NCBI GenBank assembly: GCA_052327205.1
Contig: CM126227.1
Coordinates: 51,398,001-51,462,000 of the forward strand
Direction: 5' to 3'
From: Somniosus microcephalus
Taxonomy: Eukaryota
DNA: 64,000 bases
This document shows, in pieces, positions 2,386 to 60,514 of this stretch. The notes beneath the pieces were generated by a model, which searched no databases, was not told the DNA's origin, and saw nothing but the letters and a program-made list of their open reading frames with translations. Positions within the stretch are counted from its first letter, which is position 1, and each line of letters begins with the position of its first letter. The translations under genes were made by a program, and so were the position numbers.

Positions 2386-2436
2386 CTAAAAACAGTCAGA
2401 CCAGCCACAGTGAAAGAGGGAAACATGCAGCTCCTC

Positions 2437-12288: not shown

Positions 12289-12314
12289 CTGCAGGACACG
12301 AGCAGTCAGTCAAA

Positions 12315-13475
12315 CCCCTCACTGAGCACACTCACCCCCCCTGAGCACACTCACCCCTCCTGAGCACACTCACCCCCCCTGAGCACACTCACCCCCCCTC
12401 ACTGAACACACTCACCCCTCACTGAACACACTCACCCCCCTCACTGAACACACTCACCCCCCTCACTGAACACACTCACCCCCCTCACTGAACACACTCA
12501 CCCCCCTCACTGAACACACTCACCCCCCCTCACTGAACACACTCACCCCCCTCACTGAACACACTCACCCCCCCTCACTGAACACACTCACCCCCCCTCA
12601 CTGAACACACTCACCCCCCCTCACTGAACACACTCACCCACCCTGAGCACACTCACCCCCCCTCACTGAACACACTCACCCACCCTGAACACACTCACCC
12701 CCTCACTGAACACACTCACCCCCCCCTCACTGAACACACTCGCCCCCCCTCACTGAACACACTCACCCCCCCACCCTGAACACACTCACCCCCCCTCACT
12801 GAGCACACTCACCCCCCCTCACTGAACACACTCACCCCCCCTCACTGAACACACTCACCCCCCTCACTGAGCACACTCACCCCCCCCTCACTGAACACAC
12901 TCACCCCCCCTCACTGAACACACTCACCCCCCCCTCACTGAACACACTCACCCCCCCTCACTGAACACACTCACCCCCCCTCACTGAGCACACTCACCCC
13001 CCCCTCACTGAACACACTCACCCCCCCTCACTGAGCACACTCACCCCCCCTCACTGAACACACTCACCCCCCCTCACTGAACACACTCACCCCCCCTCAC
13101 TGAGCACACTCACCCCCCTCACTGAACACACTCACCCCCCCTCACTGAACACACTCGCCCCCCCCTCACTGAACACACTCGCCCCCCCTCACTGAACACA
13201 CTCACCCCCTCACTGAACACACTCACCCCCCCTCACTGAACACTCACCCCCCCTCACTGAACACACTCACCCCCCCTCACTGAACACACTCACCCCCCCT
13301 CACTGAGCACACTCACCCCACCTCACTGAACACACTCACCCCCCTCACTGAACACACTCGCCCCCCCTCACTGAACACACTCACCCCCCCTCACTGAGCA
13401 CACTCACCCCCCTCACTGAACACACTCACCCCCCTCACTGGACACACTCGCCCCCCCTCACTGAACACACTCACC
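12315..13475. repeat. About 22-bp minisatellite (CCCCCCTCACTGAACACACTCA)n, about 50 copies
   Basis: Tandem periodicity with variable C-run. Confidence 0.97.
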
Positions 13476-13789
13476 GTCCCCACCCCCCAACTGGGAAATG
13501 GCCTTGCAAGGTCAGGGGTGGCTGGTAATGGGTGCGGGCTTGGAGTCTGATCTTGTTGCTGTGCATCTGTGTCTCCTTGTTCCTTTATGTGTGTTTGTGT
13601 CTGTCGGTATACCCACCATGCTATGGTACTAATGAACAGAGTGAGCAGTAGAATTTAGCGCAATAAATTTTAAAGTGTGCTGTAACATTATCTAAAGAGC
13701 GCAAATGGAAAGAGACAGTTTTTGGTTTTGTGCATGTTGCTGTGGTTGAGTGTGTAGTTATCGCTCCGTGTCTGATAGTATTTCTGGGG

Positions 13790-14890
13790 CTGTGACTGGG
13801 TCTGTGTCTGGGCGTCACTGTCTCTCTGTGTCTGGGCGTCACTGTCTCTGGGTCTGTGTCTGGGTGTCACTGTCTCTGGGTCTGTGTCTGGGTGTCACTA
13901 TCTCTGGGTCTGTGTGTCACTGTCTCTGGGTCTGTGTGTCACTGTCTCTGGGTCTGTGTCTGGATGTCACTGTCTCTGGGTCTGTGTCTCGGTGTCACTG
14001 TCTCTGGGTCTGCCTCTGGATGTCACTGTCTCTGGGTCTGCCTCTGGATGTCACTGTCTCTGGGTCTGCGTCTGGGTGTCACTGTCTCTGGGTCTGCCTC
14101 TGGATGTCACTGTCTCTGGGTCTGCCTCTGGATGTCACTGTCTCTGGGTCTGTGTCTGGGTGTCACTGTCTCTGGGTCTGTGTCTGGGTGTCACTGTCTC
14201 TGGGTCTGTGTTTGGGTGTCACTGTCTCTGGGTCTGTGTTTGGGTGTCACTGTCTCTGGGTCTGTGTCTGGGTGTCACTGTCTCTGGGTCTGTGTCTGGG
14301 TGTCACTGTCTCTCTGTGTCTGGGCGTCACTGTCTCTGGGTCTGTGTTTGGGTGTCACTGTCTCTGGGTCTGTGTCTGGGTGTCACTGTCTCTGGGTCTG
14401 TGTCTGGGTGTCACTGTCTCTGGGTCTGTGTCTGGGTGTCACTGTCTCTGGGTCTGTGTCTGGGTGTCACTGTCTCTGGGTCTGTGTCTGGATGTCACTG
14501 TCTCTGGGTCTGCCTCTGGATGTCACTGTCTCTGGGTCTGTGTCTGGGTGTCACTGTCTCTGGGTCTGTGTCTGGGTGTCACTGTCTCTGGGTCTGTGTC
14601 TGGGTGTCACTGTCTCTGGGTCTGTGTGTCACTGTCTCTGGGTCTGTGTGTCACTGTCTCTGGGTCTGTGTTTGGGTGTCACTGTCTCTGGGTCTGTGTC
14701 TGGGTGTCACTGTCTCTGGGTCTGTGTCTGGGTGTCACTGTCTCTGGGTCTGCCTCTGGATGTCACTGTCTCTGGGTCTGTGTCTGGGTGTCACTGTCTC
14801 TGGGTCTGTGTCTGGGTGTCACTGTCTCTGGGTCTGTGTTTGGGTGTCACTGTCTCTCTGTGTGCAGGTCTGTGTCTGGTGTCACTGTCA
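13790..14890. repeat. 28-bp minisatellite (TGTCACTGTCTCTGGGTCTGTGTCTGGG)n
   Basis: Tandem periodicity; source of ORFs 13750..15060, 13856..14917, 13884..14921. Confidence 0.97.
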
Positions 14891-15550: not shown

Positions 15551-17039
15551 CTACAAAAGAAATGAGACATAATCGGCTTCCAGTAACTCAGTTGCTAAAA
15601 CACAGACAGGAAGATATACAGTGCACATTTCACCTGATCTTCCTTTCCCAGTCAGCTGTGCAAGTTTGCAAATGAAGCTGAACTCTTTATCACAACTTCA
15701 GCATCACTGCAATTCCTGCAGGCAGCCACTGAGAGTTACACACACCAAGCCATGGCATCTGATTGGAACATAGGAACAGGAGGAGGCCATTCAGCCGCTC
15801 GAGCCTGTTCCACCATTCAATTAGATCACGGCTGATCTCTGTCTTAACTCCATCGCCCCGCCCTGGTTCCATAACCCTTAATACCCTTGCTTAACAAAAA
15901 TCTATCAATCTCAGTTTTTTAATTTTCAATGGGGCTAGCCTCAACAGCTTTTTTTGCAGGGGGGGGGGGGGAAAGAGTTCCAGATTTTCACTACCCTTTG
16001 TGTGAAGAAGTGCTTCCTGGCATCACCCCTGAACGGCCTGGCTCTCATTTTAAGGTTCTGCCCCCTTGTTCTGGACTCCCCCCACCAGAGGAAATAGTTT
16101 CTCTCTCTCTACCCGATCAACTCCTTTAATCATCTTAAACACCTCGATTAGATCACCCCTTAATCTTCTTTACTCAAGGGAATACAACCCTGTAATGTAT
16201 GTACCTTTAAGGGGGGGAACTACTTTTTACAGCTCATGTATACTGTAGTACCGGCAGTGACCACACCTGTATATAACGTTGAGTAGTAATCTGTACAGAT
16301 CAGTTGCAGTCTGAGCCACGTTGAGTAAACACCGTTTGTACCGTTCTCCGCAGTCTGTGTCTGATTATACACGGACGTAACATTGGCGACGAGGCAGATT
16401 CGAACCTACCTGCAACTCTGCATCACCTCCCAGGGATTCGCTCCTGGAGAACAGCGGAAGAAGATCGAGGCCAGAAGCACGGGCGTTGACCACGGGCAAC
16501 CGCCCAGTCATCCAGCGGAGATTTGAGCATCGCAGGGGAGGCTGTCGAGAGCCAGGCTTGGCTTTCCACTCACGGTGGTCCAGCGAAACGGGCTGGCAAC
16601 AGGTACTGCGCAGACCCTTCCTGGACAGCGGCGGGCTAGAGCCCGACCGAGTGGCACAGAAAAAGGCCGAGCAGCGTCGACGGGGGAGAGAGGGCAGAGC
16701 GCACAGGGTGCAGCCGGTGTTCAGGACCGAGCGGCGTCAATGGGGGAGAGAGACGAGAGAGAGCAGAGCGCAGCCGGTGTTCAAGGGCCGAGCAGCGTCA
16801 ACGGGGGAGAGAGGCGCGCAGGAAAACGTGAGGCGCTGCCATTGCCACGAGGACCGCAGAGAGCGGCGTTGGCAGCAGCGCAGGAGCAGCGCGCGAAACC
16901 CACAGGGCGTCGCCATTTGCCACGAGGACCGCCGAGAGCGGCGTTGGCAGCAGCGCGGGAGACGCCATTTTAAGCCGCAGCGGGGAAGAAAGGAAAGCGC
17001 GGGAGACGCCATTTTAAGCCAGTCTAACCACACCCAAAA

Positions 17040-18242
17040 ATGCCGAAGAGTGGCAGTATCACAGCGTTCGACAATGAAGTCGAAGATTGGACGACATATG
17101 TCGAACGCATAGAAGTATACTGCAAGGCGAATGAAGTGCCAGATGACAAGAAAGCGCTGGTATTGTTGAATTCAATGGGTGCAAAAACGTATGGCTTACT
17201 ACGAAACCTAGTAACCCCAGAGAAGCCAGTAGAAAAGGATTTTGAAAACATGGACCACTTAAACCCCACACCGCTGCTGATAGCAGAAAGATTTAAGTTT
17301 CACAAAAGGAACCAGCATAAAGATGAAAGTAATGCTGAGTATTTAACGGAACTGCGCAAGCTATCGAAACACTGCCAGTTTGGAACGGGACTAGCAGATA
17401 CCTTAAGGGACAAGTTTGTGTGTGGGCTTCAAAGTGAAGGAACCCAGAAACGGCTTTTATCTGAAAAGGACCTTACGCTGGAAAAGGCTTTCAGCATTGC
17501 GGTATCATATGAAGCAGCAGCACGGGGCGCTGCAGAGATACAACAGAGACCGCAAGAATATGGCACAAACGAAATGTCATATGGAACAGAGAAGTGCTAT
17601 AGCTGCGGCAGAACAACACACGACCAGAATGATTGCTGGTTCAAAGACAAAGTGTGCAGACAGTGTGGAAAAGTAGGACACATAGCACGAGTCTGCAGGT
17701 CGGGAAAGAAAACCAGCAATAAGAAACCGACCAAAGGAAAGTACAAGAAGGTACATAAGATAACGGAGAATAGTTCAGACGAACAAAAGAGTGATAACGA
17801 CTCCGAAAGCAGGGAACTGAGTTGTCTGAAACTACATAATGTGATCACAACAGAGGATCACCGAACCATTTGGGTCACTCTCAAGGTAGCAGGAGTCCAG
17901 GTAAAGATGGAATTGGACACAGGATCAGCCCTAACAGTCATAAACCGACGGGACTATGAGCGGCTATTCTCACACATACCCTTGAGAGACACAAAAATTA
18001 TTTTGAAGACGTACACGGGGCAAAAAGTCTACCCCAAAGGAAAAATAAGGGTGACCGTTATATATAACGGTAAGGAAACACCAAAACTAGACCTGTATGT
18101 ATTGCAAGATGGAGGACCACCATTACTGGGACGTGAAGGGATCCGGAAAATACAACTGGATTGGCATTCCATACAGGCACTGACTGTGGCTGACAAAAAG
18201 GATGACGACGTCACACCTGGGCGACTGTCAGATCCTAACTGA
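17040..18242 (+). CDS. gypsy Gag with two CCHC zinc knuckles plus aspartic protease
   Basis: CYSCGRTTHDQNDC and CRQCGKVGHIARVC knuckles; LDTGS protease motif; stops at a frameshift before RT. Confidence 0.9.
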   Translation: MPKSGSITAFDNEVEDWTTYVERIEVYCKANEVPDDKKALVLLNSMGAKTYGLLRNLVTPEKPVEKDFENMDHLNPTPLLIAERFKFHKRNQHKDESNAEYLTELRKLSKHCQFGTGLADTLRDKFVCGLQSEGTQKRLLSEKDLTLEKAFSIAVSYEAAARGAAEIQQRPQEYGTNEMSYGTEKCYSCGRTTHDQNDCWFKDKVCRQCGKVGHIARVCRSGKKTSNKKPTKGKYKKVHKITENSSDEQKSDNDSESRELSCLKLHNVITTEDHRTIWVTLKVAGVQVKMELDTGSALTVINRRDYERLFSHIPLRDTKIILKTYTGQKVYPKGKIRVTVIYNGKETPKLDLYVLQDGGPPLLGREGIRKIQLDWHSIQALTVADKKDDDVTPGRLSDPN

Positions 18243-20970
18243 CGCGAAAGAAGTGTTCCAGCAAGGACTCGGAACACTAAAAGGCATGACAGCGATGATT
18301 AAAATTGAAAAAAACGCAAGCCCAAAATGTTTTAAGGCCAGACCTTATGCGACCCGCCCAGCCGTCGAAGCAGAGCTGGAGAGTCTGGAACGTTCAGGTG
18401 TACTGTCCAAGGTAGACTGGAGCGAGTGGGCTACACCCATTGTCCCTGTGATGAAAAAGTCGTTGAGCAGCACGCCTGGGGAACCAAGGAAGGTTCGCAT
18501 CTGTGGGGGCTTTAAGGTAACAGTGAACCCGGTCCTTCACGCCGTACAATATCCACTTCCGCGGATTGAAGATATTTTCGCCTCGCTATCTGGAGGGAAA
18601 CGCTTCACTAAGATTGATCTGGCCCAGGCGTATCTGCAAATGGAGGTAGAAGAAGCATCAAAAAAATACCTCACAATCAACACCCATAAAGGTCTCTACC
18701 AATACAACCGGCTGGTATTCGGGGTAGCATCAGCTCCGGCTATTTGGCAGAGGGCAATGGAACAAGTCCTGCAAGGGATCCCAGGGACCCAGTGTTATTT
18801 GGACGACATCCTGGTCACGGGCGAAAATGACAGTGATCACCTTGCCAACCTGGAGCAGGTGCTCACTAGATTGCAGGAATATGGGCTCCGAGCTAACCGC
18901 CCCAAATGCAAGTTTTTTAGAAAACAGATCTCGTATTGTGGCCACGTTATCGATAAAGAGGGGCTACATAAGTCCCCAGAGAAGATTGAGGCAGTAGTCA
19001 AGGCTCCAGCACCGGAAAATGTGTCACAACTGAGGTCGTTCCTCGGGCTGGTAAACTACTACCATAAGTTCTTGCCAAATTTGTCTACAATACTACACCC
19101 ACTGAACACCCTACTGCAAACTGGGGTGCCATGGAAGTGGAGTGACGAATGTAGACGAGCTTTCCAGAAGAGCAAAACACTAATCACATCGAAAGAGGTA
19201 TTGGCCCATTACAACCCAGCATTACCAATTCGGTTGGCATGTGATGCGTCACCCTACGGCATTGGAGCGGTGCTGTCGCACAAATTCTCGGACGGCTCAG
19301 AGAGGCCAATAGCCTTTGCGTCACGATCACTAACCTCAGCCGAGCGTAACTACGCCCAGATTGACAGGGAGGCCCTCAGCCTAGTGTGGGGAGTGAAAAA
19401 GTTCAATCACTATCTGCACGGGCAGAAATTCACCTTGCTGACTGATCACCAGCCTCTTGTCTCCATTTTTAATCCAAAGAAGGGCGTTCCGGTGATGACT
19501 GCGCAACGACTACAAAGATGGTCACTTTTTCTAGGGGCACACTACTATGAGATTGAATATAAGGGCACGAAACAGCATGGAAATGCTGATGGGCTATCAC
19601 GCCTGCCACTGCCTACTGCGGAGGAAGCACCAGCAGCGGATCCTGTCGAAATATTCCATTCGACTATAGTTGAATACCTATCGGTAACTAACGCTTGTAT
19701 CAAAAAGGAAACCCGAAATGACCCGACACTGTCTCGGGTATATGATTTGACGGTGAAGGGATGGCCAGCACATGGCAACTCACTGTTGCCAGCATTCTCG
19801 ACAAGGAGAGAACAGCTGTCAGTGTGCCGGGGGACCTTGATGTGTGGATCCCGAGTGGTAATTCCACCCAAGTTAAGGGATAGAGTGCTCAATGAGCTTC
19901 ATGAGGGTCATCTGGGAGGAGTAAAAATGAAAAGCCTAGCCAGGGCTTATGTGTGGTGGCCGGGAATCGATAAACAAATCGAGGACCTGACCAAGAGCTG
20001 CTCAGGATGCCAGAAAGTCCAAAGCGCACCACCACAGGCCCCTCTACACCCATGGGAGTGGCCCTCATCTCCATGGCAACGGGTGCATATTGATTTTGCT
20101 GGTCCATTCATGGACTCAATATTTTTAATAGCCGTGGATGCGCACTCGAAATGGCCTGAGGTCATCAAAATGTCCTCCACCACCACGGAGAAAACTATTG
20201 CAGTCCTACGGACCATTTTTGCCAGGAATGGCTTGCCAGAACAGATTTGCTCCGATAACGGGCCACAGTTTGTGTCCGAAAAGTTCCGGAGGTTCTTGAA
20301 AAAGAATGGGGTAAGGCATTACACATCCGCCCCGTATCATCCAGCCACAAATGGATTGGCTGAGAGGTTCGTACAAACCTTTAAGAAGGCAATAAAGGCT
20401 ATGTACAATGACAACATTCCGCTGCAGCACAAGGTGGACAATTTCCTGTTCGCCTACTGGAATGCGACACATGCAGTCACCAACCAGGCCCCAGCCATGA
20501 TGTTCTTTAACCGAAGGTTAAGATCTCGCCTGGATTTGCTCAGACCAAACGTACGAAGAGATGTTGAGAGTAAGCAATTCCAGCACATCCATGAGAAGCC
20601 AACAAGGAGCTTCAATGTAGGGCAACCAGTCTTGGCCCGCGACTACCGAACAGAAAAATGGCAGCCAGGAACGATATGCACACGGCAGGGCCCACTAATG
20701 TACACAGTGGACGTTGGGGAGAGCATCGTGAGACGCCATGCTGACCAGATCCTAGAGTCACAAGAACAAGTCAACCCCATGCCTCGCCCATACGTACCTG
20801 GTGATGAACCCGACGTACAGGTAGCATCTACCCCAGAAACAGTAGCATCGGAAGCTGATGAACCAACCGACGACAGGGGGCCAGAATCGCCTCCGCACCA
20901 AGAGCAAGACACTCGGGAAAGGCGCTATCCAGAAAGGATCAGGAAGCCTCCCCAAAGACTGAATTTATAA
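18229..20970 (+). CDS. gypsy Pol: reverse transcriptase, RNase H, integrase (frameshifted from gag-PR)
   Basis: YLDD, CDASPYGIG, HEGH...CSGC zinc finger, HIDFAGP / SDNGPQF / NGLAER DDE integrase motifs. Confidence 0.93.
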   Translation, partial: QILTDAKEVFQQGLGTLKGMTAMIKIEKNASPKCFKARPYATRPAVEAELESLERSGVLSKVDWSEWATPIVPVMKKSLSSTPGEPRKVRICGGFKVTVNPVLHAVQYPLPRIEDIFASLSGGKRFTKIDLAQAYLQMEVEEASKKYLTINTHKGLYQYNRLVFGVASAPAIWQRAMEQVLQGIPGTQCYLDDILVTGENDSDHLANLEQVLTRLQEYGLRANRPKCKFFRKQISYCGHVIDKEGLHKSPEKIEAVVKAPAPENVSQLRSFLGLVNYYHKFLPNLSTILHPLNTLLQTGVPWKWSDECRRAFQKSKTLITSKEVLAHYNPALPIRLACDASPYGIGAVLSHKFSDGSERPIAFASRSLTSAERNYAQIDREALSLVWGVKKFNHYLHGQKFTLLTDHQPLVSIFNPKKGVPVMTAQRLQRWSLFLGAHYYEIEYKGTKQHGNADGLSRLPLPTAEEAPAADPVEIFHSTIVEYLSVTNACIKKETRNDPTLSRVYDLTVKGWPAHGNSLLPAFSTRREQLSVCRGTLMCGSRVVIPPKLRDRVLNELHEGHLGGVKMKSLARAYVWWPGIDKQIEDLTKSCSGCQKVQSAPPQAPLHPWEWPSSPWQRVHIDFAGPFMDSIFLIAVDAHSKWPEVIKMSSTTTEKTIAVLRTIFARNGLPEQICSDNGPQFVSEKFRRFLKKNGVRHYTSAPYHPATNGLAERFVQTFKKAIKAMYNDNIPLQHKVDNFLFAYWNATHAVTNQAPAMMFFNRRLRSRLDLLRPNVRRDVESKQFQHIHEKPTRSFNVGQPVLARDYRTEKWQPGTICTRQGPLMYTVDVGESIVRRHADQILESQEQVNPMPRPYVPGDEPDVQVASTPETVASEADEPTDDRGPESPPHQEQDTRERRYPERIRKPPQRLNL

Positions 20971-23699: not shown

Positions 23700-24095
23700 A
23701 GGTCACAAATCCAAAGTACTTTATTTTTGAACTGTAGTCACGATTGTTATGTAGACAAATCAATGGCCAATTTACATACAGGACAAACAGCAAATGAGAT
23801 AAATAAGCAGTTCATTTGTTTTAGGCATTAGTTGAAGTATAAGTATTGGCCAGGACACAGGGAGAACTCCCTACTCTTCCTTGAAAAGGGCCGTGGGTTC
23901 TTTCACATTCTGAACATGTAGACAGGGCCTCGATTTAATGTCTTATCTGAAATATGACACTTGCGACAATGCAGCACTCTCTCAGTACTGCACTGAAGTG
24001 TCAGCCTGGATTATGCACTCAGATCCTGGTGTGGGGATTAAACCCATGGCTTTCTGACCCAGAGGCAACAGTGCTACCATTAAGCCAAGTGGACA
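23700..24095 (-). mobile_element. Degraded Deu-domain SINE copy
   Basis: Similarity to the 10312-10730 and 41843-42258 copies. Confidence 0.65.
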
Positions 24096-24159
24096 CTTGT
24101 ACTAATCATTTATCCAGTGCTACATTCTGGGAAGTGCATATACTTGTAGCCATCAGGCA

Positions 24160-24970
24160 AGGAATCTGTACCCCAATGAGAGTCAGTGTCTGTGGAACCT
24201 GTATCCCAGTGAGAGTCAGTGTCTGTGGAACCCATACCCCGGTGAGAGTCAGTGTCCGTGGAGCCTGTAGCCCAGTGGGAGTCAGTGTGTGTGGAACCTG
24301 TACCCTAATAAGAGTCAGTGTCTGTGGAACCTGTACCCCAGTGAGAGTCAGTGTCTGTGGAACATGTACCCCAGTGAGAGTCAGTGTCTGTGGAACATGT
24401 ACCCCAGTGAGAGTCAGTGTCTGTGGAACATGTACCCCAGTGAGAGTCAGTGTCTGTGGAACCTGTACCCCAGTGAGAGTCAGTGTCTGTGGAACCTGTA
24501 TCCCAATGACAGTCAGTGTCTGTGGAACCTGTACCCCAGGGAGAGTCAGTGTCTGTGTAACTGTACCCCAGGAAGAGTCAGTGTCTGTGGAACTGTACCC
24601 CAGTGAGAGTCAGTGTCTGTGGAACCCGTACCACAGTGAGAGTCAGTGTCTGTGGAACTGTACCCCAGTGAGAGTCAGTGTCTGTGGAACTGTACCCCAG
24701 TGAGAGTCAGTGTCTGTGTAACTGCACCCCAGTGAGAGTCAGTGTCTGTGGAGCTGCACCCCAGTGAGAGTCAGTGTCTGTGGAACTGTACCCCAGTGAG
24801 AGTCAGTGTCTGTGAAACTGTACCCCAGTGAGAGTCAGTGTCTGTGGAACTGTACCCCAGTGAGAGTCAGTGTCTGTGGAACTGTACCCCAGTGAGAGTC
24901 AGTGTCTGTGGAACTGTACCCCAGTGAGAGTCAGTGTCTGTGGAACTGTACCCCAGTGAGAGTCAGTGTC
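24160..24970. repeat. 33/32-bp minisatellite (GGAAC[C]TGTACCCCAGTGAGAGTCAGTGTCTGT)n
   Basis: Tandem periodicity; 33-bp units on the left, 32-bp units on the right. Confidence 0.96.
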
Positions 24971-26441
24971 TTCAGGAAAGGAGGGAAGGAAATAATTGGC
25001 AAAAACAGAAAATTAAATCTGACTTCAGATGCCCAACTGAAAACACCAGCATGGTACCAGTTATAGTGACCATTAAGGATGCACCACACAGCACCTGTAG
25101 GCATTACAGTAACAGCACTCAAAAGGGAGTACTTGGTCACAAGCGAGTGTTAAAGGGAGCAGTTCAATCCCTCGGTCAGGTTTGTCGCGATACTAGATCA
25201 CTACACTGTAAACAAAGCATCAGTCAGGCCAGTTGATTGGACAGTCTACACACCCAATCAAATTGCCAGAATCAAAATTCCAGACATTGATTTGGCTAAT
25301 CTGAATCTATAAATTTAGTTTAAAGGTTACAGAGTATTTAGAATAAATTGGCCGTTAAGACTGGGAGTTCTCATCAACTCCAGTTCATAAGAGGTTGACT
25401 CCAGGTCTTGTTGTCTATCATACAGGTTCCTAAGCTGGGTGCGGTGCGGTGCGGGGCGGGGCGGAGCGGGGAGGCTATCGGGGGGTGGTGAGGACACCAG
25501 CTGTAACTCACTGACAGGAATTGCCTGCAATACCTATTCTCTCCAGTGGTGGCATTTCCGGCACACTAAGAGCAGTGAAGCAGGAGCAGATCCGAGGAAT
25601 TTTCCGGCCCGTGAGTTCTCATGATAGGATTGGGCTTCATATTAAAACCCATTAGTATAAAGGAGCAGAATTAAAATAGCTAAAGTGACAAAATTGAAGT
25701 ATTCTGGGTTACCCGCTATACCTAAACTAACACTGAATACAAAAACACTTTCTTAGAAAGAAGGGGGTGCGTGTGGGGCATGAAACTTCAAAGAAGGGCT
25801 CAGCAAAAAATAAAGTTTGGGATCCCCTGGTCTATGGGGTTTCTCAGCTAAACTCCAGCCTATTACTTGTGCTTTCACTTTGTTTATGCTCCTCCCTCAA
25901 TCTGCTGACAGAAAGCCAAACGTTAACACCGTGCAAACTCTGAGAATGCTGGGCACGGTTCAGCTGGTTAATGGAAACAAACCTGTGACTGAAGAACGTT
26001 TGGAACAGTCTCTGTCATAGAACTACACAGAATACAGAACGTGGACGGCAACACCGTCACACAGACCAACAAAATCCAATTTGGTTCTCTGGCCTATGGG
26101 CTGAGATCCCCAATAATAATAATAATAATAATAATCAACTTTATTGTCATTGTTAGTGCACAAGTGCAGTACAACGAAATGTAGGCTTGCGGCTCCCGAG
26201 AGTGTACATTTAGATTAAGACACTTAAACATTCAACATACATTTGGCTTGTAATACATTAACATAAACATAAACATAATAAAGTGCATTGGCAGATGTGC
26301 AGGCTTTAGAGTTTATTTGTGGAGTTCAGCAGGATGACAGCCCTGGGAAAGTAGCTGTTCCTAAATCTGGTCGTTCGGGTGCGAATGCATCTGCAGCGTC
26401 TCCCAGATGGCAGGAGGGTGAACAGACTGTGGCTGGGGTGG

Positions 26442-29400
26442 TGATGCGCTATCAATTACTCATAAAAGACTGAGAGTTAAGAGAGTAACTAAAGGCTTTT
26501 ATTAACAAAAGAATGAAGGTCTGCCTCGAGTGGTCGACCGGTCCAGAAATACAAAGGGCTGGGGAGCAGTCACCTTTATACTAGGACTTGTGGGAGGAGT
26601 CAGCCGAGGCATGTCCAGGCATGTACACAGTGGAATACAAACAGTGGTTTACCACATTCACCCCTTGTTTAAAATTGAGTCCGGCGGGGTGAAGTGTATT
26701 AAAAGTTAGTGTATTGGAGTCTCTCCGGAGGTCTTGTCTGCCGCTGTGATCAGCGTGGCGACGGCAGGGGTAGTGGAGCTTCCGGCGTCGAGTCCTGCGT
26801 AGGCTGTGGCACAGGCGTGTCGTCCTCGTAGATGTCGAGCGGGTCGCGGGGCCCAGGCCTGCCGTCTGCTGGGGCTGGATATCGGATCGTTGGGGGGGGT
26901 GGTAGTGAGTAGTGGGTTACTGCGGCCCCCGAGGGTGCAAGGTCTCTTATGGAGACTGTGTCCTCCCGCCCGTCCGGGTATGCAATGTAAGCATACTGGG
27001 GGTTGGCGTGGAGGAGGTCGACCCTCTCGACCAGGGGGTCCGTTTTATGGGTCCTCACGTGTCTTCTCAGTAGGTCCGGCCCTGGGGACGTCAGCCATGG
27101 CGGTAGCGATGTCCCCGATGTGGACTTCCTTGGGAAGACAAACATTTTCTCATGAGGGGTGGCGTTAGTGGCAGTGCAGAGCAGTGACCGAATAGAGTGG
27201 AGCGCATCGGGGAGCACATCCTGCCAGCGGGAGGTTGGAAGGCCCCTAGACTTTAAGGCTAGCAGGGCGGCCTTCCAAACTGTCGCATTTTCTCTTTCCA
27301 CCTGTCCGTTCCCCCGGGGGTTGTAACTGGTGGTCCTGCTTGTGGCAATACCCCTAGTTAGCAGGTACTGACGGAGTTCGTCGCTCATAAACGATGAGCC
27401 CCGGTCGCTATGGATATAGCTGGGGAAACCGAACAGGGTGAAGAGGTCGTTCAGACATTTAATGACCGTGGCACTGGTCATGTCCGGGCAGGGGATGGCG
27501 AACGGGAAACGGGAGTACTCATCAATAATATTGAGGAAGTACACATTGCGGTCGGAGCAGGGGAGAGGCCCTTTAAAATCAACGCTCAGGCGCTCGAAGG
27601 GGCGAGTGGCTTTTATCAGGTGGGCCCTGTCTGGTCTATAAAAGTGCGGTTTGCACTCAGCGCAGACTTGGCAGTTCCTGGTCATGGTCCTGACCTCCTC
27701 AATAGAGTAAGGCAGGTTGCGGGCCTTGATGAAGTGGAAGAACCTGGTGACCCCCGGGTGGCAGAGGTCATTGTGGAGGGCCCGCAGTCTATCGATCTGT
27801 GCGCTGGCGCAGGTGCCACGCGATAGCGCATCCGGGGGTTCATTGAGCTTCCCGGGCCGGTACAAGATCTCGTAATTGTAGGTGGAAAGTTCGATTCTCC
27901 ACCTCAAGATCTTGTCATTTTTGATTTTGCCCCTCTGCTTGTTGTTAAACATGAAAGCAACTGAACGCTGGTCAGTGAGCAGGGTAAATCGTTTTCCGGC
28001 CAGGTAGTGCCTCCAATGACGCACAGCCTCCACAATCGCCTGGGCCTCCTTCTCAACAGCGGAGTGTCTGGTCTCCGGGCCTTGGAGGGTTCGTGGAAAG
28101 AAGGCCACGGGTCTCCCCGCCTGATTGAGGGTAGCGGCCAGGGCAAAGTCGGACGCGTCGCTTTCCACCTGGAAGGGGATGGATTCGTCCACTGCGTGCA
28201 TGGTGGCTTTGGCAATGTCCTCCTCGATACGGTGGAAGGCTAAGCGGGCCTCTGCCGTCAAGGGAAAAGAGGTGGACTTGATCAGCGGACGGGCCTTGTC
28301 CGCATAGTAGGGGACCCACTGGGCGTAATAGGAGAAAAACCCTAGGCACCTCTTCAGGGCCTTGAGGCAGTGGGAGTTCCATAAGGGGACGCATCCGGTC
28401 GGGGTCGGGGCCGATGACTCCGTGTTCCACAACACAGCCAAGGATGGCGAGGCGGTTTGTGCGGAATATGCACTTCTCCTTGTTATATGTCAGGTTCAGG
28501 AGTTGGGCGGTGCGGAGGAATTTTTCGAGGTTTGCGTCATGGTCCTGCAAGTCACGGCCGCAGATGGTCACATTGTCCAGATATGGGAAAGTGGCCTGCA
28601 ACGCATTTTGATCTACCATCCGGTCCATCTCCCTTTGGAAGACGGAGACCCCGTTGGTGACGCCAAAGGGAACCCTAAGGAAGTGATAGAGGCGGCCGTT
28701 TGCCTCAAAGGCGGTATACTGGCGGTCCTCAGGGCGGATAGGGAGCTGGTGGTACGCTGATTTCAGGTCAATGGTCGAGAAGACGCGGTACTGCGCGATC
28801 TGGTTGACCATATCAGCTATGCGGGGGAGTGGGTAGGCGTCCAGCAGGGTGTAGCGATTTATTGTCTGGCTGTAGTCGATGACCAGGCGCTGCTTCTCGC
28901 CGGTCTTAACGACCACAACCTGGGCTCGCCAGGGGCTGGTGCTGCCCTCAATAATCCCTTCCTTCAGGAGCCGCTCCACTTCGGTTTTAATGAAAACCCT
29001 GTCCCCGGCACTGTATCGCCTGCTCTTTGTGGCGATGGGCTTACAGTCGGGGGTGAGGTTAGCAAACAGTGGGGGGGGGGGTGACTCTGAGTGTGGAGAG
29101 GTTGCACCTGGTGCGCGGCGGGCAATTTGGAAGCTGCTGGCTGCGGACTGTGAGTGGGGGTAGGGGTCCACCGTACGCCATCGTAACACTTTTAAGGTGG
29201 CACTGAAAATCTAACCCCAGCAGGACGGCAGCGCAGAGGTCGGGCAGGACCAGAAGTTTAAAATGATCGTACACAGTCCCGTCTACTACGAGTGTCACCA
29301 CGCAGTAGCCGCCGATGTCCGCCGACTGGGACTCGGAGGCCATAGAAATCCGCTGGTGCGCAGGCAGGACTGGGAGAGAGCAACGCCGCACCGTGTCGGG

Positions 29401-30750
29401 GTGGATGAAGCTCTCCGTGCTCCCAGAGTCAAAAAGGCAGATTGTATCGTGACCATTTACCTTAATGTCCATTGTGGAACTGGCCAGCTGGTGCGGTCTC
29501 GCTTGGTCTAGTGTAACGGATGCCAGCGTAGGGGTCGGTGTGTCGCTGCGGGTATCAGATGAGGCGGTGTTGGGGGCCTGCTGCGTTCCGGCTGTCATCC
29601 AAGATGGTGGCGTCCATGATCCCCATGTGGCTGGAGGCGTCCAAAATGGCTGCTGTACCGGTGGTTCGCACATGGCCGGGGAGGCCCAAGATGGCGGCCC
29701 GCATGGCCCACACGCGGCGCTGCTGGGGTTCGGGGTGGCTTTGGCCCTGCAGACGCTAGCGTAGTGTCCCTTCTTCCCGCAGCCCGAGCAGATCGCGTTT
29801 TTCGCCGGGCAGCGCGCTCTGGGGTGTTTTGCCTGGCCACAGAAGTAGCATTTCTGGCCTTGGGGCACTGCTGTCTGGCCTTGGGACACTGCTGCGGTAG
29901 TTGGGCCGTTGCTGGGGTGGCACGGCGCTATGAGGCGGTCCTACCGTGTCCCAGGCTGTCATTCCCCGCGGCGTCCACGGTGCAGAGGAGTAGGCATCCA
30001 TGCCCCGGTAGGCTGCATCCAATGATAGTGCGAGTTCAGAGGCCTTGTTGAGGTCGAGGTCACTCTGCTCCAACAGTCGCTGTCGGGTGTAATTGGATCT
30101 GTGGCCCGCTACAAAAGCGTCCCGGAAACGTTCCTCTGTGTACACGGCGGCCTTTACATCCTTACAACCACAGGCCCGGCCAAGCACAGACAGTGCCTGA
30201 AGGTATTCCACGGTCGATTCCCCAGGTTGTTGTTTACGACTCCCCAGAAGGTGCCTGGCGTACACTTCGTTCACTGGGCGCGTGTACTGGTCCTTGAGGA
30301 GCTTGATAGCGTCCGCGTACGAGGTCGCGTCTTGGATGACCGAGTACACTCGGTGGTTCACTTTGGAGGTCAGGACATCCAGTTTGTCCTCGTCCGATTT
30401 GATTGCTGCGGAGGCGGTCAGGAATTTTTCGAAACACTTAAGCCAGTGAGTAAACTTGGTGGATGAGTCCGCCTCCCGATGATCTAAGTCCAGGCATGCT
30501 GGTGTGAGGATCTTCTCCATTATAAAAATTTTGTTAATAAAATTGATGCGCTATCAATTACTCATAAAAGACTGAGAGTTAAGAGAGTAACTAAAGGCTT
30601 TTATTAACAAAAGAATGAAGGTCTGCCTCGAGTGGTCGACCGGTCCAGAAATACAAAGGGCTGGGGAGCAGTCACCTTTATACTAGGACTTGTGGGAGGA
30701 GTCAGCCGAGGCATGTCCAGGCATGTACACAGTGGAATACAAACAGTGGT
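26442..30750 (-). mobile_element. Ty3/gypsy LTR retrotransposon; 3' LTR 26442-26656, 5' LTR 30544-30750 (outer 6 nt missing)
   Basis: LTRs appear identical over 207 bp; 3' LTR is TGTGG...CATCA; PPT AAACAAGGGGTGAA 26670-26657; TATAAA and AATAAA in the LTR; gag-PR-RT-RH-IN on minus. Confidence 0.96.
26750..30520 (-). pseudogene. gypsy gag-pol broken by three frameshifts (about 29890-29945, 29071-29081 and 28370)
   Basis: ORFs 29756..30520 (gag), 29059..29889 (two CCHC knuckles, FDSGS protease), 28053..29189 (RT, YLDN), 26750..28441 (RNase H SDASD, HNDLCH..CQVC, SVDFKGP/SDRGSSF/NGQVER integrase). Confidence 0.9.
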
Positions 30751-32427
30751 CGTTCGGGTGCGAATGCATCTGTAGCGTCTCCCAGATGGCAGGAGGGCGA
30801 ACAGACTGTGGCTGGGGTGGGTAGGGTCTTTGATGATGGACCGTGACCTCCGTAAACAGCGTTTCTGGTATATGTGCTCTATGGTCGGTAGCCGGGTGCC
30901 GGTAATGCGTTGGGCAGTTTTGACTACCCGCTGCAGGGCTTTCCGGTCATAGGAGCTACAGCTGCCATACCATACTGTGATACAGTTCGTCAGGATGCTC
31001 TCTATTGTGCAGCGGTAAAAGTTAGAGAGGATCAGGGGTGACAGGTTACATCCCTTCAGCCTCCTTAGGAAATATAGGCGCTGCTGGGCCTTCTTCACCA
31101 GAGAGGAGGTATTGAGGGACCAGGAGAGGTCTTCCGTGATGTGGACTCCGAGGAACTTAAAGCTGTCCACCCTTTCCACCACAGCCCCATTGGTGCCGAG
31201 CCAGTCAGAAAATAAAAAGACCCTACAATCATACAGATACAAAACTTATAGACATCAGGGCGACCGATTGGAAGTTATCGAGGTGGGTATACTGCCAGTG
31301 CTCAAAGTTCCTTAAGCCTGTGAGTAACAACAGGGTAATAATCTTTAAAAGTATGAAATTTATGCTGCTTTTCACTGCCTCAGTGAGGTGCTTGTTTGTA
31401 GCAGAACTTCTTTAGCAGATTTAACCAGATTTAGTGAATTGCCGAATATATATTGGTGTTGCCATTGCACATGCAAGATCCACTTGCCGGAAACAAGCAC
31501 CTCAAACTGCCCTCCAAGGCCAATGCAAACACAGCTATAACATCGCAACAAACCAGGGACAAAATTCAATTCCCAGCTGGGGTTAATTGTTCAATAAAAA
31601 GCTGTGTGGGCCTCAATACTACTGAACATTAGCAGCTGAACACAGTGCCAAAGGCAAATGATGGACTCTGATCAGCAGATCTTGAATAAGCAGTACAGCA
31701 GAGTAGCTGCATTGTCCCACGCCATGGGTTATAGTCACAACACTGACAGCAACGTACAATCTTCTTTCAATCAGCACTGTAAGCTTTTAAGGCAGAACCC
31801 TTTCAAGATCCTGGTAATGTATGCACTGCTGCAGGATTAAAGCTAGTCTGATCTGAATTGCCTGATGAACAGCCAGCCCAATAAAAGGAGGAGATGAGAG
31901 ACACTAAATCTGTCCATCTACAAAAACATGCGCTCTCAATATGGGATCTGAAAGGCTCATCTGATATCCATTTTCTCGCTCAGTAATGTTACTTTCATCT
32001 CCTTTGCTCAGATAAAAGCTGCTCACAGGAAGCTCAGCATCTTCTTTTATATAAAACATTGCTTTTCTCCTCAACAATTGTTCACCCTCTCTAAATCTCA
32101 GGTGTGCCCAAGGCTACCCCTATGTCAAGGAGGCTCTAACATCTCTCTCATGTTCCTGGACAATATACAAGAAAAAGCTTGCAGCAAATCTGTCTCCCAC
32201 CTGCAACCTCTCTGTTCCAACATTTCCTGCCAGATTTTATTGGCACTACTGTGTTGCTCTGAATTTGCTTCTCTTATTCTATTAATAATGTACTGTCAGG
32301 GCCAGGTGCACAATACTCCTAATAGCAACTAAATGAGGCATGCTTCACGACTATAACACCACCTGGTGGATCCCAAGAATGGAGTCAGAGCCACAGACCG
32401 TGACCAGCAAAAGCGACCAGCAATATA

Positions 32428-38719: not shown

Positions 38720-39386
38720 AGGGGACCAGCTGCCCAGACGGTGGCCCACCCGTCTCCCTGGGGACCTGCTGCCCAGACGGTGGCCCACCCGTCTCCCTGG
38801 GGACCTGCTGCCCAGACGGTGGCCCGCCCGTCTCCCTGGGACCTGCTTCCCAGGCGGTGGCCCACCCGTCTCCCTGGGGACCTGCTGCCCAGACAGTGGC
38901 CCACCCATCTCCCTGGGGACCTGCTGCCCAGACAGTGGCCCATCAGTCTCCCTGGGGACCTGCTGCCCAGACAGTGGCCCACCCGTCTCCCTGGGGACCT
39001 GCTGCCCAGACAGTGGCCCACCCATCTCCCTGGGGGCCTGCTGCCCAGACAGTGGCCCACCCATCTCCCTGGGGGCCTGTTGCCCAGACAGTGGCCCACC
39101 CGTCTCCCTGGGGGCCTGCTGCCCAGACAGTGGCCCATCAGTCTCCCTGGGGACCTGCTGCCCAGACAGTGGCCCACCCGTCTCCCTGGGGGCCTGCTGC
39201 CCAGACAGTGGCCCACCCGTCTCCCTGGGGGCCTGCTGCCCAGACAGTGGCCCACCCGTCTCCCTGGGGACCTGCTGCCCAGACAGTGGCCCATCAGTCT
39301 CCCTGGGGACCTGCTGCCCAGACAGTGGCCCACCCGTCTCCCTGGGGGCCTGCTGCCCAGACGGTGGCCCACCCGTCTCCCTGGGG
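38720..39386. repeat. 39-bp minisatellite (GGGACCTGCTGCCCAGACAGTGGCCCACCCGTCTCCCTG)n, about 17 copies
   Basis: 13-aa periodic ORFs in several frames. Confidence 0.96.
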
Positions 39387-39631
39387 ACCGTGGAGACTAT
39401 CCATCTCTGACCAGTGCTGCTTCACAGTGGAGCAACTGAGCTCACTCTCCTATTGAAAGGAGCTGGAATGCTGATACTCCAGCATTCTGTGCCAATGTGC
39501 CCTCCTTCCTTTCACATACTGCTTATGCCTCCAGTTGGCAATTGATGACCATTAAAGAGATTTAACAGGAAGATGTTGGGTGAAATCAGCTGTCATGGCA
39601 AACCCTCCATTCTTCTACTGTAGCAGCTTAC

Positions 39632-43566: not shown

Positions 43567-44879
43567 AGTTTCTACTAGAGTTTCTCTCATAAGCGATTGA
43601 AAAGAATTTGGACTTTTTTTGTTTTGAAACAGTTTATTGCACTTCTCGTACTTTCCTGCTTCTTAGTGCATCTGTGTATTCTATTTGTAAATGAATCTAT
43701 TAGTTTAGCTTTCACACTTTGGTTTGATGGTCTGATTTTTTTCCAATTACCCATTTAATGTGATATCGGCCACTAGAGATCACACAGGATGCCCATTCAC
43801 CATACTTGAAAGAATAAAGAACATGTTGGGCAATCCATGTGATCTCCAGTGACTGATATCACATTGAAAGGTTAATTGGCAATCCTGGACACACTACCTC
43901 AGACAAGGCATGGATTAGGGCACAGACTTTGGTTCATAGAAGATTGAAATTCTGATCAATCTGAGGAACCCTTTGTCCCTGTTCAGTCCTTTTTGAATGG
44001 ATGCATCCTGTTTCCATGTTGTCCTCCTCACTTGCAGATTCCAAAATTTGTTTTTTTGCTGTGGTGGAACAAAGCCCAACTGTAACAGCCCAGTTTGTGC
44101 CTGACTGAGTCAGTGGGTGGGGAGGGCTGGGATTGACTTCAGTGCCCCAGACTAGCAAGGAGGAAAATGAATTTAGCCTGGATTCCCACTGCCATTCACT
44201 GTTGGATGGGAACAGAACGGGGTTCAGCTATAATGTTCCCCACACTTGAACAGCCTACCAACATTCAGCAAGTTCATTCCTGAAGGCTGCCCACGTGGCT
44301 GGGGTACTCGAGTCACGCTTTCAGGCAACGAGGGATTAAAGTCAGGGAAAAATCTACCAGCTGGAAAAACTTCAGGGGAATCGCTGCGTGTGGGAGCAGT
44401 CACTTTAACTTTCTGCTCTGTACAAATTCCTGACAGCCATCAAATATGACCTTTTCAAACCCTTTCTAATCAGTACATGGAATTTACCAAGCAGCCTATG
44501 AGATGCCTTTCTAATGAGCACTGAGCTTCCAATTACTCGACCCCACTGAGAGCAGCAACCCCCAACAGGGCATCATTTAACGAACCTGTATCAGCATGCA
44601 ATCCAGCATCAATGTCTGCAACGCTGACCATCCAGTCGCTCCATACTCAGCAGTTGCAGTTGACCGGAGATGGCAGCTCCTTCACCTCTCACTGCCTCTC
44701 TCTTTCACACACTGTACTGAACCATGATTGTACTGTTACATCAATTCCACTTATCATTTCTCTCTGTGTTTTTTGACATTCCATGCTCCCATCTTCTGAT
44801 ACGAATAAGGCATATCCACACCTGAAACATAAACTTGTCTGTTCTATCCCCAGATTCTCACTGACCTGCCGGGTGCCTC

Positions 44880-46120
44880 CTATAGGACCCCCCCATCCAC
44901 AGGCCTTCCTCCTACAGGCCCCCCCTCCTACAGGCCCCCCCCCTTACAGGCCCCCCCCCCCTACAGGCCCCCCCCCCTCCTACAGGCCCCTCTCCTACAG
45001 GCCTCCCTCTCCTACAGGCCCCCCTCCTACAGGCCCCCCTCTCCTACAGGCCCCCCTCCTACAGGCCCCCCCCCTCCTACAGGCCCCCACTCCTACAGGC
45101 CCCCCCTCCACAGGCCCTCCCTCTACAGGTCCCCCTCCTACAGGCGCCCCCCTCCTACAGGCCCCCCCCCTCCTACAGGCCCCCCCCCCCTACAGGCCCC
45201 CCTCCTACAGGCCCCCCCTCCTACAGGCCCCCCTCCTACAGGCGCCCCACTCCTACAGGCCCCCCCCTCCACAGGCCCTCCCTCCACAGGCCCCCCCTCC
45301 TACAGGCGCCCCCCTCCTACAGGCCCCCCTCCTACAGGCCCCCCCTCCACAGGCCCTCCCTCCACAGGCCCCCCCTCCTACAGGCGCCCCCCTCCTACAG
45401 GCCCCCCTCCTACAGGCCCCCCCTCCTACAGGCCCCCCTCCTACAGGCCCCCCCCTCCTACAGGCCCCTCTCCTACAGGCCTCCCCCTCCTACAGGCCCC
45501 CCTCCTACAGGCCCCCCCCTCCTACAGGCCCCCCCTCCTACAGGCCCCCCTCCTACAGGCCCCCCTCCTACAGGCCCCACTCCTACAGGCCCCCCCTCCA
45601 CAGGCCCTCCCTCTACAGGTCCCCCTCCTACAGGCGCCCCCCTCCTACAGGCCCCCCCCTCCTACAGGCCCCCCCTCCTACAGGCCCCCCTCCTACAGGC
45701 CCCCCTCCTACAGGCCCCCCCTCCTACAGGCCCCCCCTCCTACAGGCGCCCCCCCTCCTACAGGCCCCCCTCCTACAGGCGCCCCACTCCTACAGGCCCC
45801 CCCTCTACAGGCCCCCCCTCCTACAGGCGCCCCCTCCTACAGGCGCCCCCCTCCTACAGGCCCCCCTCCTACAGCCCCCCCTCCTACAGGCCCCCCCCTA
45901 CAGGCGCCCCCTCCTACAGGCGCCCCCCTCCTACAGGCCCCCCTCCTACAGCCCCCCCTCCTACAGGCCCCCCCTCCTACAGGCCCCCCTCCTACAGCCC
46001 CCCCTCCTACAGGCCCCCCCTCCTCCAGGCCCCCCCTCCTACAGGCCCCCCCTCCACAGGCCCTCCCTCTACAGGCCCCCCTCCTACAGGCCCCCCCTCC
46101 TACAGGCCCCCACCCTACAG
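44880..46120. repeat. C-rich minisatellite, about 15-18 bp unit (CCTACAGGCCCCCCCT)n
   Basis: Tandem periodicity; source of the Pro-rich ORF 44783..46318. Confidence 0.96.
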
Positions 46121-48204
46121 CCCACCCCAACTTCACCGCCCTGCCTGTGTCACTATCCTACTAGAAGGTATGTGTGCACAGGGGAGAGGGGGGTCAACAC
46201 CTCCCAGTTCAGACACAGATCATTACAGGTCACTGAAGAGCTCCATCCCATCCCACCACCCCACAAACTGACAATGTTGAATTCTGTAAGGAAGATTCAC
46301 AAACACTGGCTCAGGTAAATGGTTCACTTTAGTGATGGGTCCAATCCCTGGGAGGAATAATTAAAAAAATTAGGAGTAAGAAGGGAAGTCAGGGGAAACA
46401 TTTTATCCAAAGGGTAATCGAGTTATGGAATAAGTTTCAAGAGAAGCCCATTGAAGTGGAGAATCTATAAATGAGATCAAGAGACAACTGAACATACTTC
46501 TGGAGCAATAAGGAGCTGAGGACCATGGTGACGAGGTGGGATGGTGGGGTTAATCTATGAACGTGGGGCAGGCTTACTGAGCCTAATAACACTTTCCTGC
46601 TCCTAAAAACTCTTCTGTTCTTAAGTCAACAGTCAGAGGCCTGGGGCACACATACTGGGTTAATTAAAGCAGCCTCTGCAAACTCTGACAATCACAAGTG
46701 GGGAACCAGTGGGCTCCGTTGTTTCTGCAATGAGAAGGACAACACGGAACCAAGATTCATCCATTCAAAATGGACTGATGGGAACAAAGGGTTCCTCAGA
46801 TACATCAGAATTTAAATCAGATAGCAGTACCAGCAGAGGCTCCCTGCACTCCGGGGGCCTGGTGTTCCTTCCCATGAACACTGTATCGCTACACTATTTT
46901 CCGGTGCTGATTTTATCCATTGAAGCAGCAACGCCCCAGTCCCGACTGCAAGTGCCCTCACTCCATGTACACAGCACGCAGGGTAACCAATGGGGAGCCA
47001 ATCGGAGCAGATTCCAATTTGAACCAGAGTTACAGTCGTGATGGCATGGGTCTGGATTTGCTCTCATTTTATAGGATGCATCATGGCAATGAGCATTGTT
47101 TGAGCATATTTTACTCTGAAACAGCTTTGATCAGAGTCAATTTCATTCAGTTATAAAGGCTGGTTTACAAGTCATTAAAATCACCATTTTAGTTCACAGG
47201 GATCATTCAGAAGCCACATTTGGTGAGGATCAGTTTGACTTTACTCACCTGTTTGCGGTAAGGAAGGGTGTTACCTCTGGAGTCTGAGAATGCTGCATTC
47301 CTCCAGCTCTGGCCACTTCCTTCGCCCCACCATTGGTAGCCGTGCCTTCAGCTGTCTAGGCCCCAAGTTTTGGAGTTCCCTTCCTAAACCTCGCTGGCTC
47401 TCCTCATCTCTCTCCTCCTTTAAGACGCTCCTTAAAACCTAACTCTTTGACCAAGCTTTTGGTCACCTGTCCTAATATCTCCTTCTTTGCCTATTTTAAT
47501 CTGAAAACACTCCTGTGAAGAGCCTTGGGATGTTTTACGACGTTAATTTCCCTTCTCCCTCGTGTATGCATCAAGCCTCCCCTCCAAATCAGTGCTCTCT
47601 GCTTCGACCACTCCATGTGGCAGGGAGTTCCACATTCTCACACCACTCTCTGTGTAAAGAAATTCCTCCTAAATTCTTTATTTGATCGGTTCGTGGCTTT
47701 CTTCTATTTATGTCCCCTTGTTTTGGTCTTACCCACAAGTGGAAACAGTTTCCCCACATCCACCCTTTCATCTTTCGATATTTGCAAAACACAGCGCTGC
47801 TAGAGTGGCAGTAAATCGACACATTTAGTACCATAACACATCAGGTGGCACAGCCAAATAAAGAGAAAGCTAAAAGGGTATGGGAAAGGGCAGACTCAGC
47901 ACAGCGTGAGGGCCCAAGAGGCCTCCTCCAGTGTGCAAAATTCAACCATTCTCCATTATCCACATAAGATGAGCTAAAGACCATTTGGCCCAACTATTCT
48001 ATGCCAATGTTTATACTCAATCTTATGCGGACAGTGGAGAATCGTTGGATTTTACACACAGGAGGAGGCCTGTGCTGAGTCTGAAAGAATTCTCCACTTA
48101 ATCCCACTCCCATGCCCCTTCCCCATGCCCTTTTAACTTTCCAATACACAGGAGATGCATTTAACAGGTGAAATAAATCAACATGGGCAGCAGGTAGGTT
48201 TTCA

Positions 48205-60355: not shown

Positions 60356-60514
60356 TGTGCAGTCCAATTGTGAAAGCAACTGGCATTTTCAACAATGACC
60401 AAAAGCTGTAGTTTTCTACCTAGATCAGTACACTTCAACAGGCTGCTCACCACAATCCTCATTGAAACCCACCCACCAGCCACCTACATGTAAAACACTA
60501 CAAACCCAAACCCA

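Follow-up and report, generated by a model that had tools for sequence, protein, structure and literature searches.

Among Ty3/Gypsy retrotransposons, the parts of the literature that were examined tie self-priming to the Tf1/sushi chromoviruses. The Tf1 primer consists of the first 11 nt of the element's own RNA and is cut by RNase H (PMC7175516), and a pretzel of three duplexes is described, in the available sections of two reports, as common to the chromodomain-bearing Tf1/sushi group (PMC10085805, PMC4600332). Self-priming has also been predicted, within the available text of a further study, for Tcn1 (mosses) and for the plant copia TAR lineage (PMC6317226). The name Selgy, considered as a label for self-priming elements, was rejected as it denotes a Selaginella group.

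Here we analyzed a 64,000-nucleotide stretch of Somniosus microcephalus contig CM126227.1 (the window) and argue that a young, high-copy Gypsy element on its reverse strand probably primes reverse transcription with a 5′ piece of its own RNA rather than with a tRNA. A full-text literature search, judged mostly by title and the start of the abstract, found no description of self-priming in a chromodomain-less animal Gypsy clade or of pairing between a primer binding site (PBS) and a poly(A) signal; an earlier mention in older Cigr-1 or Saci-2 papers, in Repbase or in GyDB is possible.

A Gypsy element whose primer binding site matches its own LTR

The window element (Table 1) has the domain order gag-PR-RT-RH-IN between LTRs, with a polypurine tract and without env, as expected of Ty3/Gypsy, and its best match among solved structures is the Ty3 reverse transcriptase. 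Its coding region is broken into four frames; other copies of the clade have LTRs of 215-293 bp and some carry one open reading frame of ~1,230-1,310 aa. The LTR of its family (family A) measures 215 nt with TG..CA ends, and a 5-bp target duplication is typical, being present, as judged by eye, in most of 20 full-length stretches. With its 74-bp flanks, truncated LTR and 4-nt word shared at the left joint, the window copy is labelled here a one-ended or repaired integration; the LINE in these flanks is presumably Rex1/Babar-like. The YLDN motif was considered as a clade marker and dropped, as several members carry YLDD. A TGAA spacer between the polypurine tract and the LTR TG is common to all three families of this genome considered below (A, B and C).

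Table 1. Features of the window element and its flanks (positions within the window)
Feature	Position	Strand	Basis and remarks
5′ LTR	30544..30750	(-)	207 nt, first 8 nt of the 215-nt family LTR missing; 207/207 identical to 3′ LTR
3′ LTR	26442..26656	(-)	215 nt; arm copy with AATAAA at 26510-26497, no PBS partner
TATAAA box	30677..30682	(-)	from sequence, putative function; 65 nt before arm
Predicted RNA start = predicted primer 5′ end	30651..30654	(-)	28-31 nt past TATA start; microhomology blur ~5 nt
Primer arm in R, holding AATAAA (30605-30600)	30599..30612	(-)	complementarity, fold, alignment
Predicted cut	between 30599 and 30598	(-)	from pairing register
Helix 2, 5′ arm	30585..30598	(-)	stacks directly on primer duplex; MFE fold, pairing 0.52-1.0
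Helix 2, 3′ arm in U5	30548..30563	(-)	MFE fold
PBS	30529..30542	(-)	complements primer arm; single A (30543) between LTR CA and PBS
7-bp hairpin of the earlier note	30541..30559	(-)	rivals helix 2 and PBS; not favoured
gag N-terminal frame	29756..30520	(-)	ATG at 30520, 23 nt past LTR; homologues in many animals
Two CCHC knuckles + aspartic protease	29059..29940	(-)	separate frame in window copy
Reverse transcriptase, YLDN motif	28053..29210	(-)	separate frame in window copy
RNase H + integrase core	26750..28489	(-)	no chromodomain / SH3_Tf2-1 match, no env
Polypurine tract + TGAA spacer before LTR	26657..26670	(-)	sequence
74-bp flank duplication, upstream copy	30747..30820	(-)	LINE-like, 2 mismatches; 4 nt common with truncated LTR start
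74-bp flank duplication, downstream copy	26368..26441	(-)	sequence

An exact-pattern search found 1,816 exact LTR-PBS-ATG junctions in the genome, and all 150 scored Gag matches were identical over 120 residues, indicating a large and young family. Family size was taken from these protein and pattern searches, as a nucleotide search of the genome, in which common words are skipped, gave only six matches. The closest named protein relatives come from catshark and rays (72-83%), and others, at the protein level alone, from Hydra, sea anemone, shrimp, woodlouse, spiders, sea slug, trematodes and Trichuris. Nothing was found when viral contigs were scanned for the element.

The window also holds minisatellites at 128-975, 2400-9850, 12290-14450, 24095-25043, 38721-39500, 44876-46300 and 59217-60997, with periods of ~11-39 nt and long spurious open frames, and a second Gypsy element at 17028-20970 (+), with Mag-like Gag and reverse transcriptase (YLDD), which served as a tree outgroup. 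In the left flanks of L059 and L304, insertions of different families lie, as seen by eye and possibly by chance, within ~60 bp of the same Mag-like pol motif.

An earlier note, made from the window sequence, had described a 14-mer that follows the 5′ LTR after a single A, shortly before the gag ATG, and that is the exact reverse complement of an AATAAA-containing segment present in both LTRs, ~65 nt past TATAAA. Letters and coordinates agree with this description throughout (Table 1), and the sequence observation is confirmed. The note had also remarked that the site does not begin with TGG; it begins with TTT in all 17 rows of an alignment of relatives (described below), and with TGG in none. 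With 20,000 dinucleotide shuffles each, a 14-nt match arose 0 times from the LTR, 0 times from its last 100 nt and 4 times from the leader.

The first 13 PBS bases are in place in 28 of 30 sampled copies, the two exceptions being a 1-nt insertion and a solo LTR inside the PBS. The earlier note had allowed that other copies might carry a normal tRNA site lost from this one by deletion, which is not what the family shows: the 1,816 exact junctions make the absence of such a site the family norm. Two variant copies of family A have an LTR base and its PBS partner altered together, the LTR change being present in both LTRs. Host tRNA sequences matched the PBS over at most 3 nt, in a comparison of only four distinct tRNAs taken mostly from one tandem array.

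That array (L240-L268; G000 C24, ~42.9-43.1 Mb) has a period near 1.6 kb, and the loci fetched from it are mainly tRNA-Cys(GCA). At L007 / L177 a 5-bp duplication accompanies a family-C solo LTR that interrupts the PBS of a family-A copy; L007 had been considered as an LTR swap that kept the pairing, and this reading was dropped in favour of the insertion. Two separate insertions (L008 / L178 and L030 / L179) have whole 3′ LTRs but share, in the 5′ LTR only, an identical 21-nt U5 deletion by which helix 2 loses its 3′ arm.

Compensatory change in relatives

Searches of this genome with distant Gag queries yielded two further families, B and C, with unrelated U3 and U5 regions and the same design, and compensatory variants occur within each of families A, B and C. 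Among metagenome relatives, 255 loci were found and 80 kept, of which 70 had enough upstream DNA and 10 too little. An inverted pair of at least 10 bp lies upstream of gag in 53 of these 70 (an unrelated pair in two of them) and in 28 of 30 family-C loci. Combined, 81 of 100 usable relatives carry an inverted pair of at least 10 bp, against 6 of 252 flank controls.

Seventeen rows, picked after the pairing was seen so as to cover distinct PBS types, and including close kin, were aligned. In this set 95.7% of cells are paired and 11 of the 14 pairs are altered on both sides, a result matched by 0 of 500 shuffles; when the partner is slid by 1-3 columns, pairing falls to 33-52%. The PBS start, CA-A-TTT, is nearly invariant, and so is the arm end, where RCC comes directly after ..AA. 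The hexamer in the arm is AATAAA or ATTAAA in 10 of 14 families and GATAAA, TTTAAA or GTTAAA in the other four.

Specificity of the PBS for its own LTR was evident in an 18 x 18 cross table, where the match averaged 11.7 nt to the own LTR vs 4.7 nt to foreign LTRs, and the own LTR was the strict best partner in 14 rows. Each of the four rows without a strict own match is altered near the 3′ end of the arm, and for two of them sister copies pair over 11-14 nt. Covariation between the two 14-mers, which the earlier note had listed among its checks, is thus present both across the clade and within families; complementarity that is neither conserved nor covarying in relatives, which the note would have taken as a refutation, is not what the clade shows. 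Judged from these alignments, pairing between PBS and LTR is a trait of the clade.

Inverted LTR copies behind the PBS

LTR elements re-copy their PBS from the primer during plus-strand synthesis. If the R region is the primer, overshoot should therefore extend the inverted LTR segment that lies past the LTR. Exact-pattern searches found such extended inverted copies at 67 loci, with nine in family A (compared with 1,816 normal junctions), 28 in B and 30 in C, and reversed-pattern controls gave 0. Thirty-four of the 67 reach the first base of the LTR, and four of these are flanked by a 5-bp duplication, identifying them as integrated LTR-plus-inverted-LTR units; five continue into the polypurine tract or into pol; the other 28 break off earlier, and most of these join the element again at an inner position, frequently at a short word in common. 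Family-C lengths of 54, 86 and 164-165 were considered as short copies and rejected, as they reflect alignment breaks against divergent references and the copies actually reach the LTR start.

The 28 short copies represent 25 distinct junctions, whose lengths were read by hand off alignments and are blurred by a few bases of microhomology. Measured from the TATA-like box, which in families B and C is non-canonical and was chosen by eye, seven of the 25 end within the 4-nt interval at 28-31 nt, and 22 stop at or short of the 28-nt point. The distance from arm end to TATA-like start varies (84, 76 and 94-96 nt), and the longest short copies of family A end at the predicted start (Table 1), 55-56 nt from the arm end. 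The count within the interval has P ~1e-4 under geometric nulls and <5e-6 under a uniform null; when any 4-nt interval is allowed, the pile-up has P = 0.06, and the 22 of 25 at or before the start are non-significant under short geometric nulls.

The short inverted copies are most simply read as products of a template whose end is the RNA start, although plus-strand DNA that anneals to another RNA molecule, itself uncut, could yield them as well. The 34 + 5 long loci show that fold-back also takes place, either on plus-strand DNA or on the 3′ copy. The aberrant loci favour a 5′ primer without proving one. At L299, L312, L314 and L326, one LTR is joined to an inverted partial LTR within 5-bp duplications; these are integrated fold-back products with two U3 ends. 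Such LTR-plus-inverted-LTR units could seed MITE-like or double-stranded-RNA sources.

Leader folding and transcription

When the leader was folded, the 14-bp duplex formed with a pairing probability of 0.96, and the folding z-score was -2.5. A second helix (helix 2) starts at the first base past the arm. It comprises at least 4 bp in 14 of the 17 aligned rows vs 4.3 expected, and its summed length of 78 bp vs 49 expected was reached by 0 of 2,000 shuffles. The earlier note had drawn attention to a 7-bp hairpin across the U5 edge. The letters are there, but the pairing probability is 0.0003 vs 0.96 for the 14-bp duplex, and at least 5 bp are kept in only five of the 17 aligned rows, two of which are the window family. 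The conserved U5 helix is instead helix 2, stacked on the primer end.

The folds also bear on the earlier note's suggestion that the duplex masks the poly(A) site of the 5′ LTR. AAUAAA has a predicted unpaired probability of 0.00-0.02 in the 5′ context and 0.63-0.96 in the 3′ context. Masking is thus supported by folding only, while the non-canonical hexamers at the arm end in four of 14 families speak against it.

The whole element is covered in both RNA-seq runs inspected, which belong to one study and bear the species label of DNA samples that contain the element; most reads lie in the sense direction expected of a stranded library. In both, sense depth climbs from ~26550 towards 26500, downstream of the predicted start, where related subfamilies join. 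No RNA start, cut, poly(A) tail or RNA-DNA junction was identified in the two runs. Over much of the LTR (26450-26640 and 30550-30750), antisense reads roughly equal or exceed sense reads, unlike in the element body.

A model for self-priming and its alternatives

Constancy of the design within the family, compensatory change across the clade and inverted copies that end at the predicted start together support the earlier note's proposal of self-priming by an internal segment of the leader. In the model that we favour, transcription would start ~28-31 nt past the TATA box, which puts the start 45-65 nt upstream of where the arm ends. In the leader fold that follows, the arm would pair with the PBS, and the second helix (RCC.. 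with ..GGY) would stack upon this duplex. The RNA would next be cleaved directly behind ..UAAA(A); as in Tf1, the likeliest enzyme is the element's own RNase H. The predicted primer is an R-derived RNA with the 3′ end ..UAAUAAAA. This freed 3′ end would prime minus-strand DNA one base from the U5 edge. Plus-strand synthesis would subsequently re-copy the PBS from the primer, so that the arms stay matched, with occasional overshoot to the RNA 5′ end.

The same duplex may hide AAUAAA in the 5′ LTR while leaving it open in the 3′ LTR, because the PBS follows the 5′ LTR only. The 3′ end would then be cleaved 15-30 nt past its signal, leaving no more than the repeat for the first strand transfer. 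This last step, including the strand-transfer repeat, is the weakest of the model, and we lean towards it only slightly.

The primer might instead come from the 3′ copy of the arm, in the 3′ LTR either of the same RNA or of one packaged with it; this arm would be cut after AAUAAA(A) and would anneal to the PBS. That arm is predicted by folding to be unpaired and free, and the five aberrant loci that copy through U3 into the polypurine tract or pol, together with the 34 that end at the LTR first base, fit such a template; however, long classes of this kind would be expected from fold-back of plus-strand DNA as well. Short inverted copies, by contrast, cluster at the predicted RNA start, and helix 2 shows conservation in cis. 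The 5′ arm lies 20-60 nt away from the PBS and should, by folding, be the first to occupy it (0.96). Moreover, cutting the 3′ copy would destroy the acceptor for strand transfer. We therefore regard priming from the 3′ copy as unlikely.

Less probable still, and in our view improbable, is that the duplex serves masking only, with the 5′ poly(A) signal hidden and priming performed by a host RNA fragment or by none. The arm ends in AATAAA or ATTAAA in most families and folding predicts masking, as this explanation would have it, and the thin sampling of host tRNAs (four sequences, best match 3 nt) leaves it some room. Yet the PBS lies one base past the LTR end across the clade, which is the offset found in sushi-type elements of this genome, and a masking hairpin needs no such register. 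Furthermore, the many differing PBSs each fit their own LTR, such that no single host RNA could serve them, and the pairing is kept where the hexamer is non-canonical.

Finally, chance complementarity between two AT-rich arms, which a few leader shuffles did reproduce, or deletion of a tRNA site in one copy, can be practically dismissed, being refuted by the alignment, the cross table and the 1,816 identical junctions, and GC-containing arms of relatives pair equally well.

Taken with its wider reach, the model becomes a more tentative proposal, towards which our doubt slightly outweighs our belief. It would hold that an animal-wide, chromodomain-less Gypsy clade practises tRNA-free priming independently of Tf1/sushi; that the 5′ poly(A) signal is silenced by a single PBS-R duplex, which also specifies the cut between AAUAAA and GCC, provides a 45-65-nt capped primer and fixes the length of the strand-transfer repeat; that over-copied primers are recorded in the genome; and that the system is undescribed.

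Implications

If self-priming by the 5′ arm is true, it would add a second lineage, distant from Tf1/sushi and having protein relatives among sharks, rays, crustaceans, spiders, cnidarians, a mollusc, flatworms and a nematode, and would make tRNA-free priming a repeated solution. The design would also be different, with a long primer that ends on the poly(A) signal. Such elements would escape silencing by tRNA fragments aimed at the PBS, and LTR finders that need a tRNA PBS would miss or misjudge them. Over-copied primers would offer a purely genomic route for mapping the primer and the RNA start. With more than 1,800 copies and RNA expression in a young family, the priming intermediate should be directly searchable in tissue.

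Comparison with known systems

A phylogenetic tree of 40 reverse transcriptase rows, rooted on BEL, placed 30 clade rows on one side of a branch (91/87) and the sushi-type elements separately (100/100); its deep branches are long and weakly placed, with few Gypsy lineages sampled. Grouping with Mag failed, the reverse transcriptase sharing 27% identity with that of the window's second Gypsy element and lying on a separate branch from it; we take that element to be Mag-like from its motifs. No chromodomain or Tf2-type SH3 was found at the integrase C-terminus of the window protein, and no chromodomain family among the 120 relatives listed of 877.

Described animal elements offer partial likenesses. 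Cigr-1 has LTRs of ~245 bp, one open reading frame near 1,210 aa and a Mag-like Gag. Saci-2, as far as the available text describes it, carries a CCCH motif in Gag and stands alone in the tree (PMC2582038); the window Gag can be read as C-X6-C-X2-C-X4-H, and the clade has trematode relatives. By described features alone, the clade may be the Cigr-1 clade or include Saci-2. The available parts of two reports give the range of the Cigr-1 clade and leave the PBS unmentioned (PMC6238403, PMC8556966). The CsRn1 clade is characterized, in the accessible text, by a tRNA-Trp PBS, a CHCC Gag motif and a 4-bp duplication (PMC2582038), whereas the elements described here have a TTT PBS, two CCHC knuckles and a 5-bp duplication. 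The plant Ty1/copia TAR lineage (Houba, Osr-1) is likewise predicted, in the portion available, to self-prime outside Tf1/sushi (PMC6317226), but it has the copia domain order and plant hosts and is unrelated.

As a control within this genome, 10 sushi-type stretches were inspected. Seven have a PBS of 10-11 nt that complements a site ~30 nt past a TATA-like box, and the remaining three gave no usable LTR call or were mis-cut. Their arm and PBS are ~155 nt apart, the poly(A)-like signal lies elsewhere than on the arm, and a chromodomain-like C-terminus is present. Chromoviruses of this type with a self-complementary PBS (L269-L278) are abundant, with 10,196 first-look candidates, such that two self-priming designs coexist in the genome.

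The closest functional parallel is with Tf1/Tf2 and Tj1 of fission yeasts and with the Tf1/sushi group at large, known from fungi, vertebrates and, through Tcn1, mosses; in these, within the text available, the PBS complements the element's own R, helices lie beside the primer duplex, RNase H is part of the polyprotein and the target duplication is 5 bp (PMC10085805, PMC7175516, PMC4600332, PMC6317226); the 1-nt offset of the PBS from the LTR is likewise shared with the sushi-type elements of this genome. Unlike in Tf1/sushi, where the primer is the first 11 nt, the arm here reaches the poly(A) hexamer, with its end 76-96 nt beyond the TATA-like start. It lies 20-60 nt from the PBS, with a predicted primer of 45-65 nt. 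Of the helices that make up the pretzel, the primer duplex and one stacked helix were observed here. Nor is there a chromodomain, and the reverse transcriptase is 30-31% identical and on a separate branch.

Poly(A) masking has a parallel elsewhere. In retroviruses such as HIV-1, which are primed by tRNA, an RNA helix within R-U5 hides AAUAAA in the 5′ LTR. The masking partner here would by comparison be the PBS itself, which is found after the 5′ LTR only. Overall, the clade probably works like Tf1 yet lies outside Tf1/sushi in lacking the chromodomain, the reverse transcriptase grouping and, on indirect evidence, a terminal primer of ~11 nt, and the sequences compared suggest that its self-priming likely arose independently of that group.
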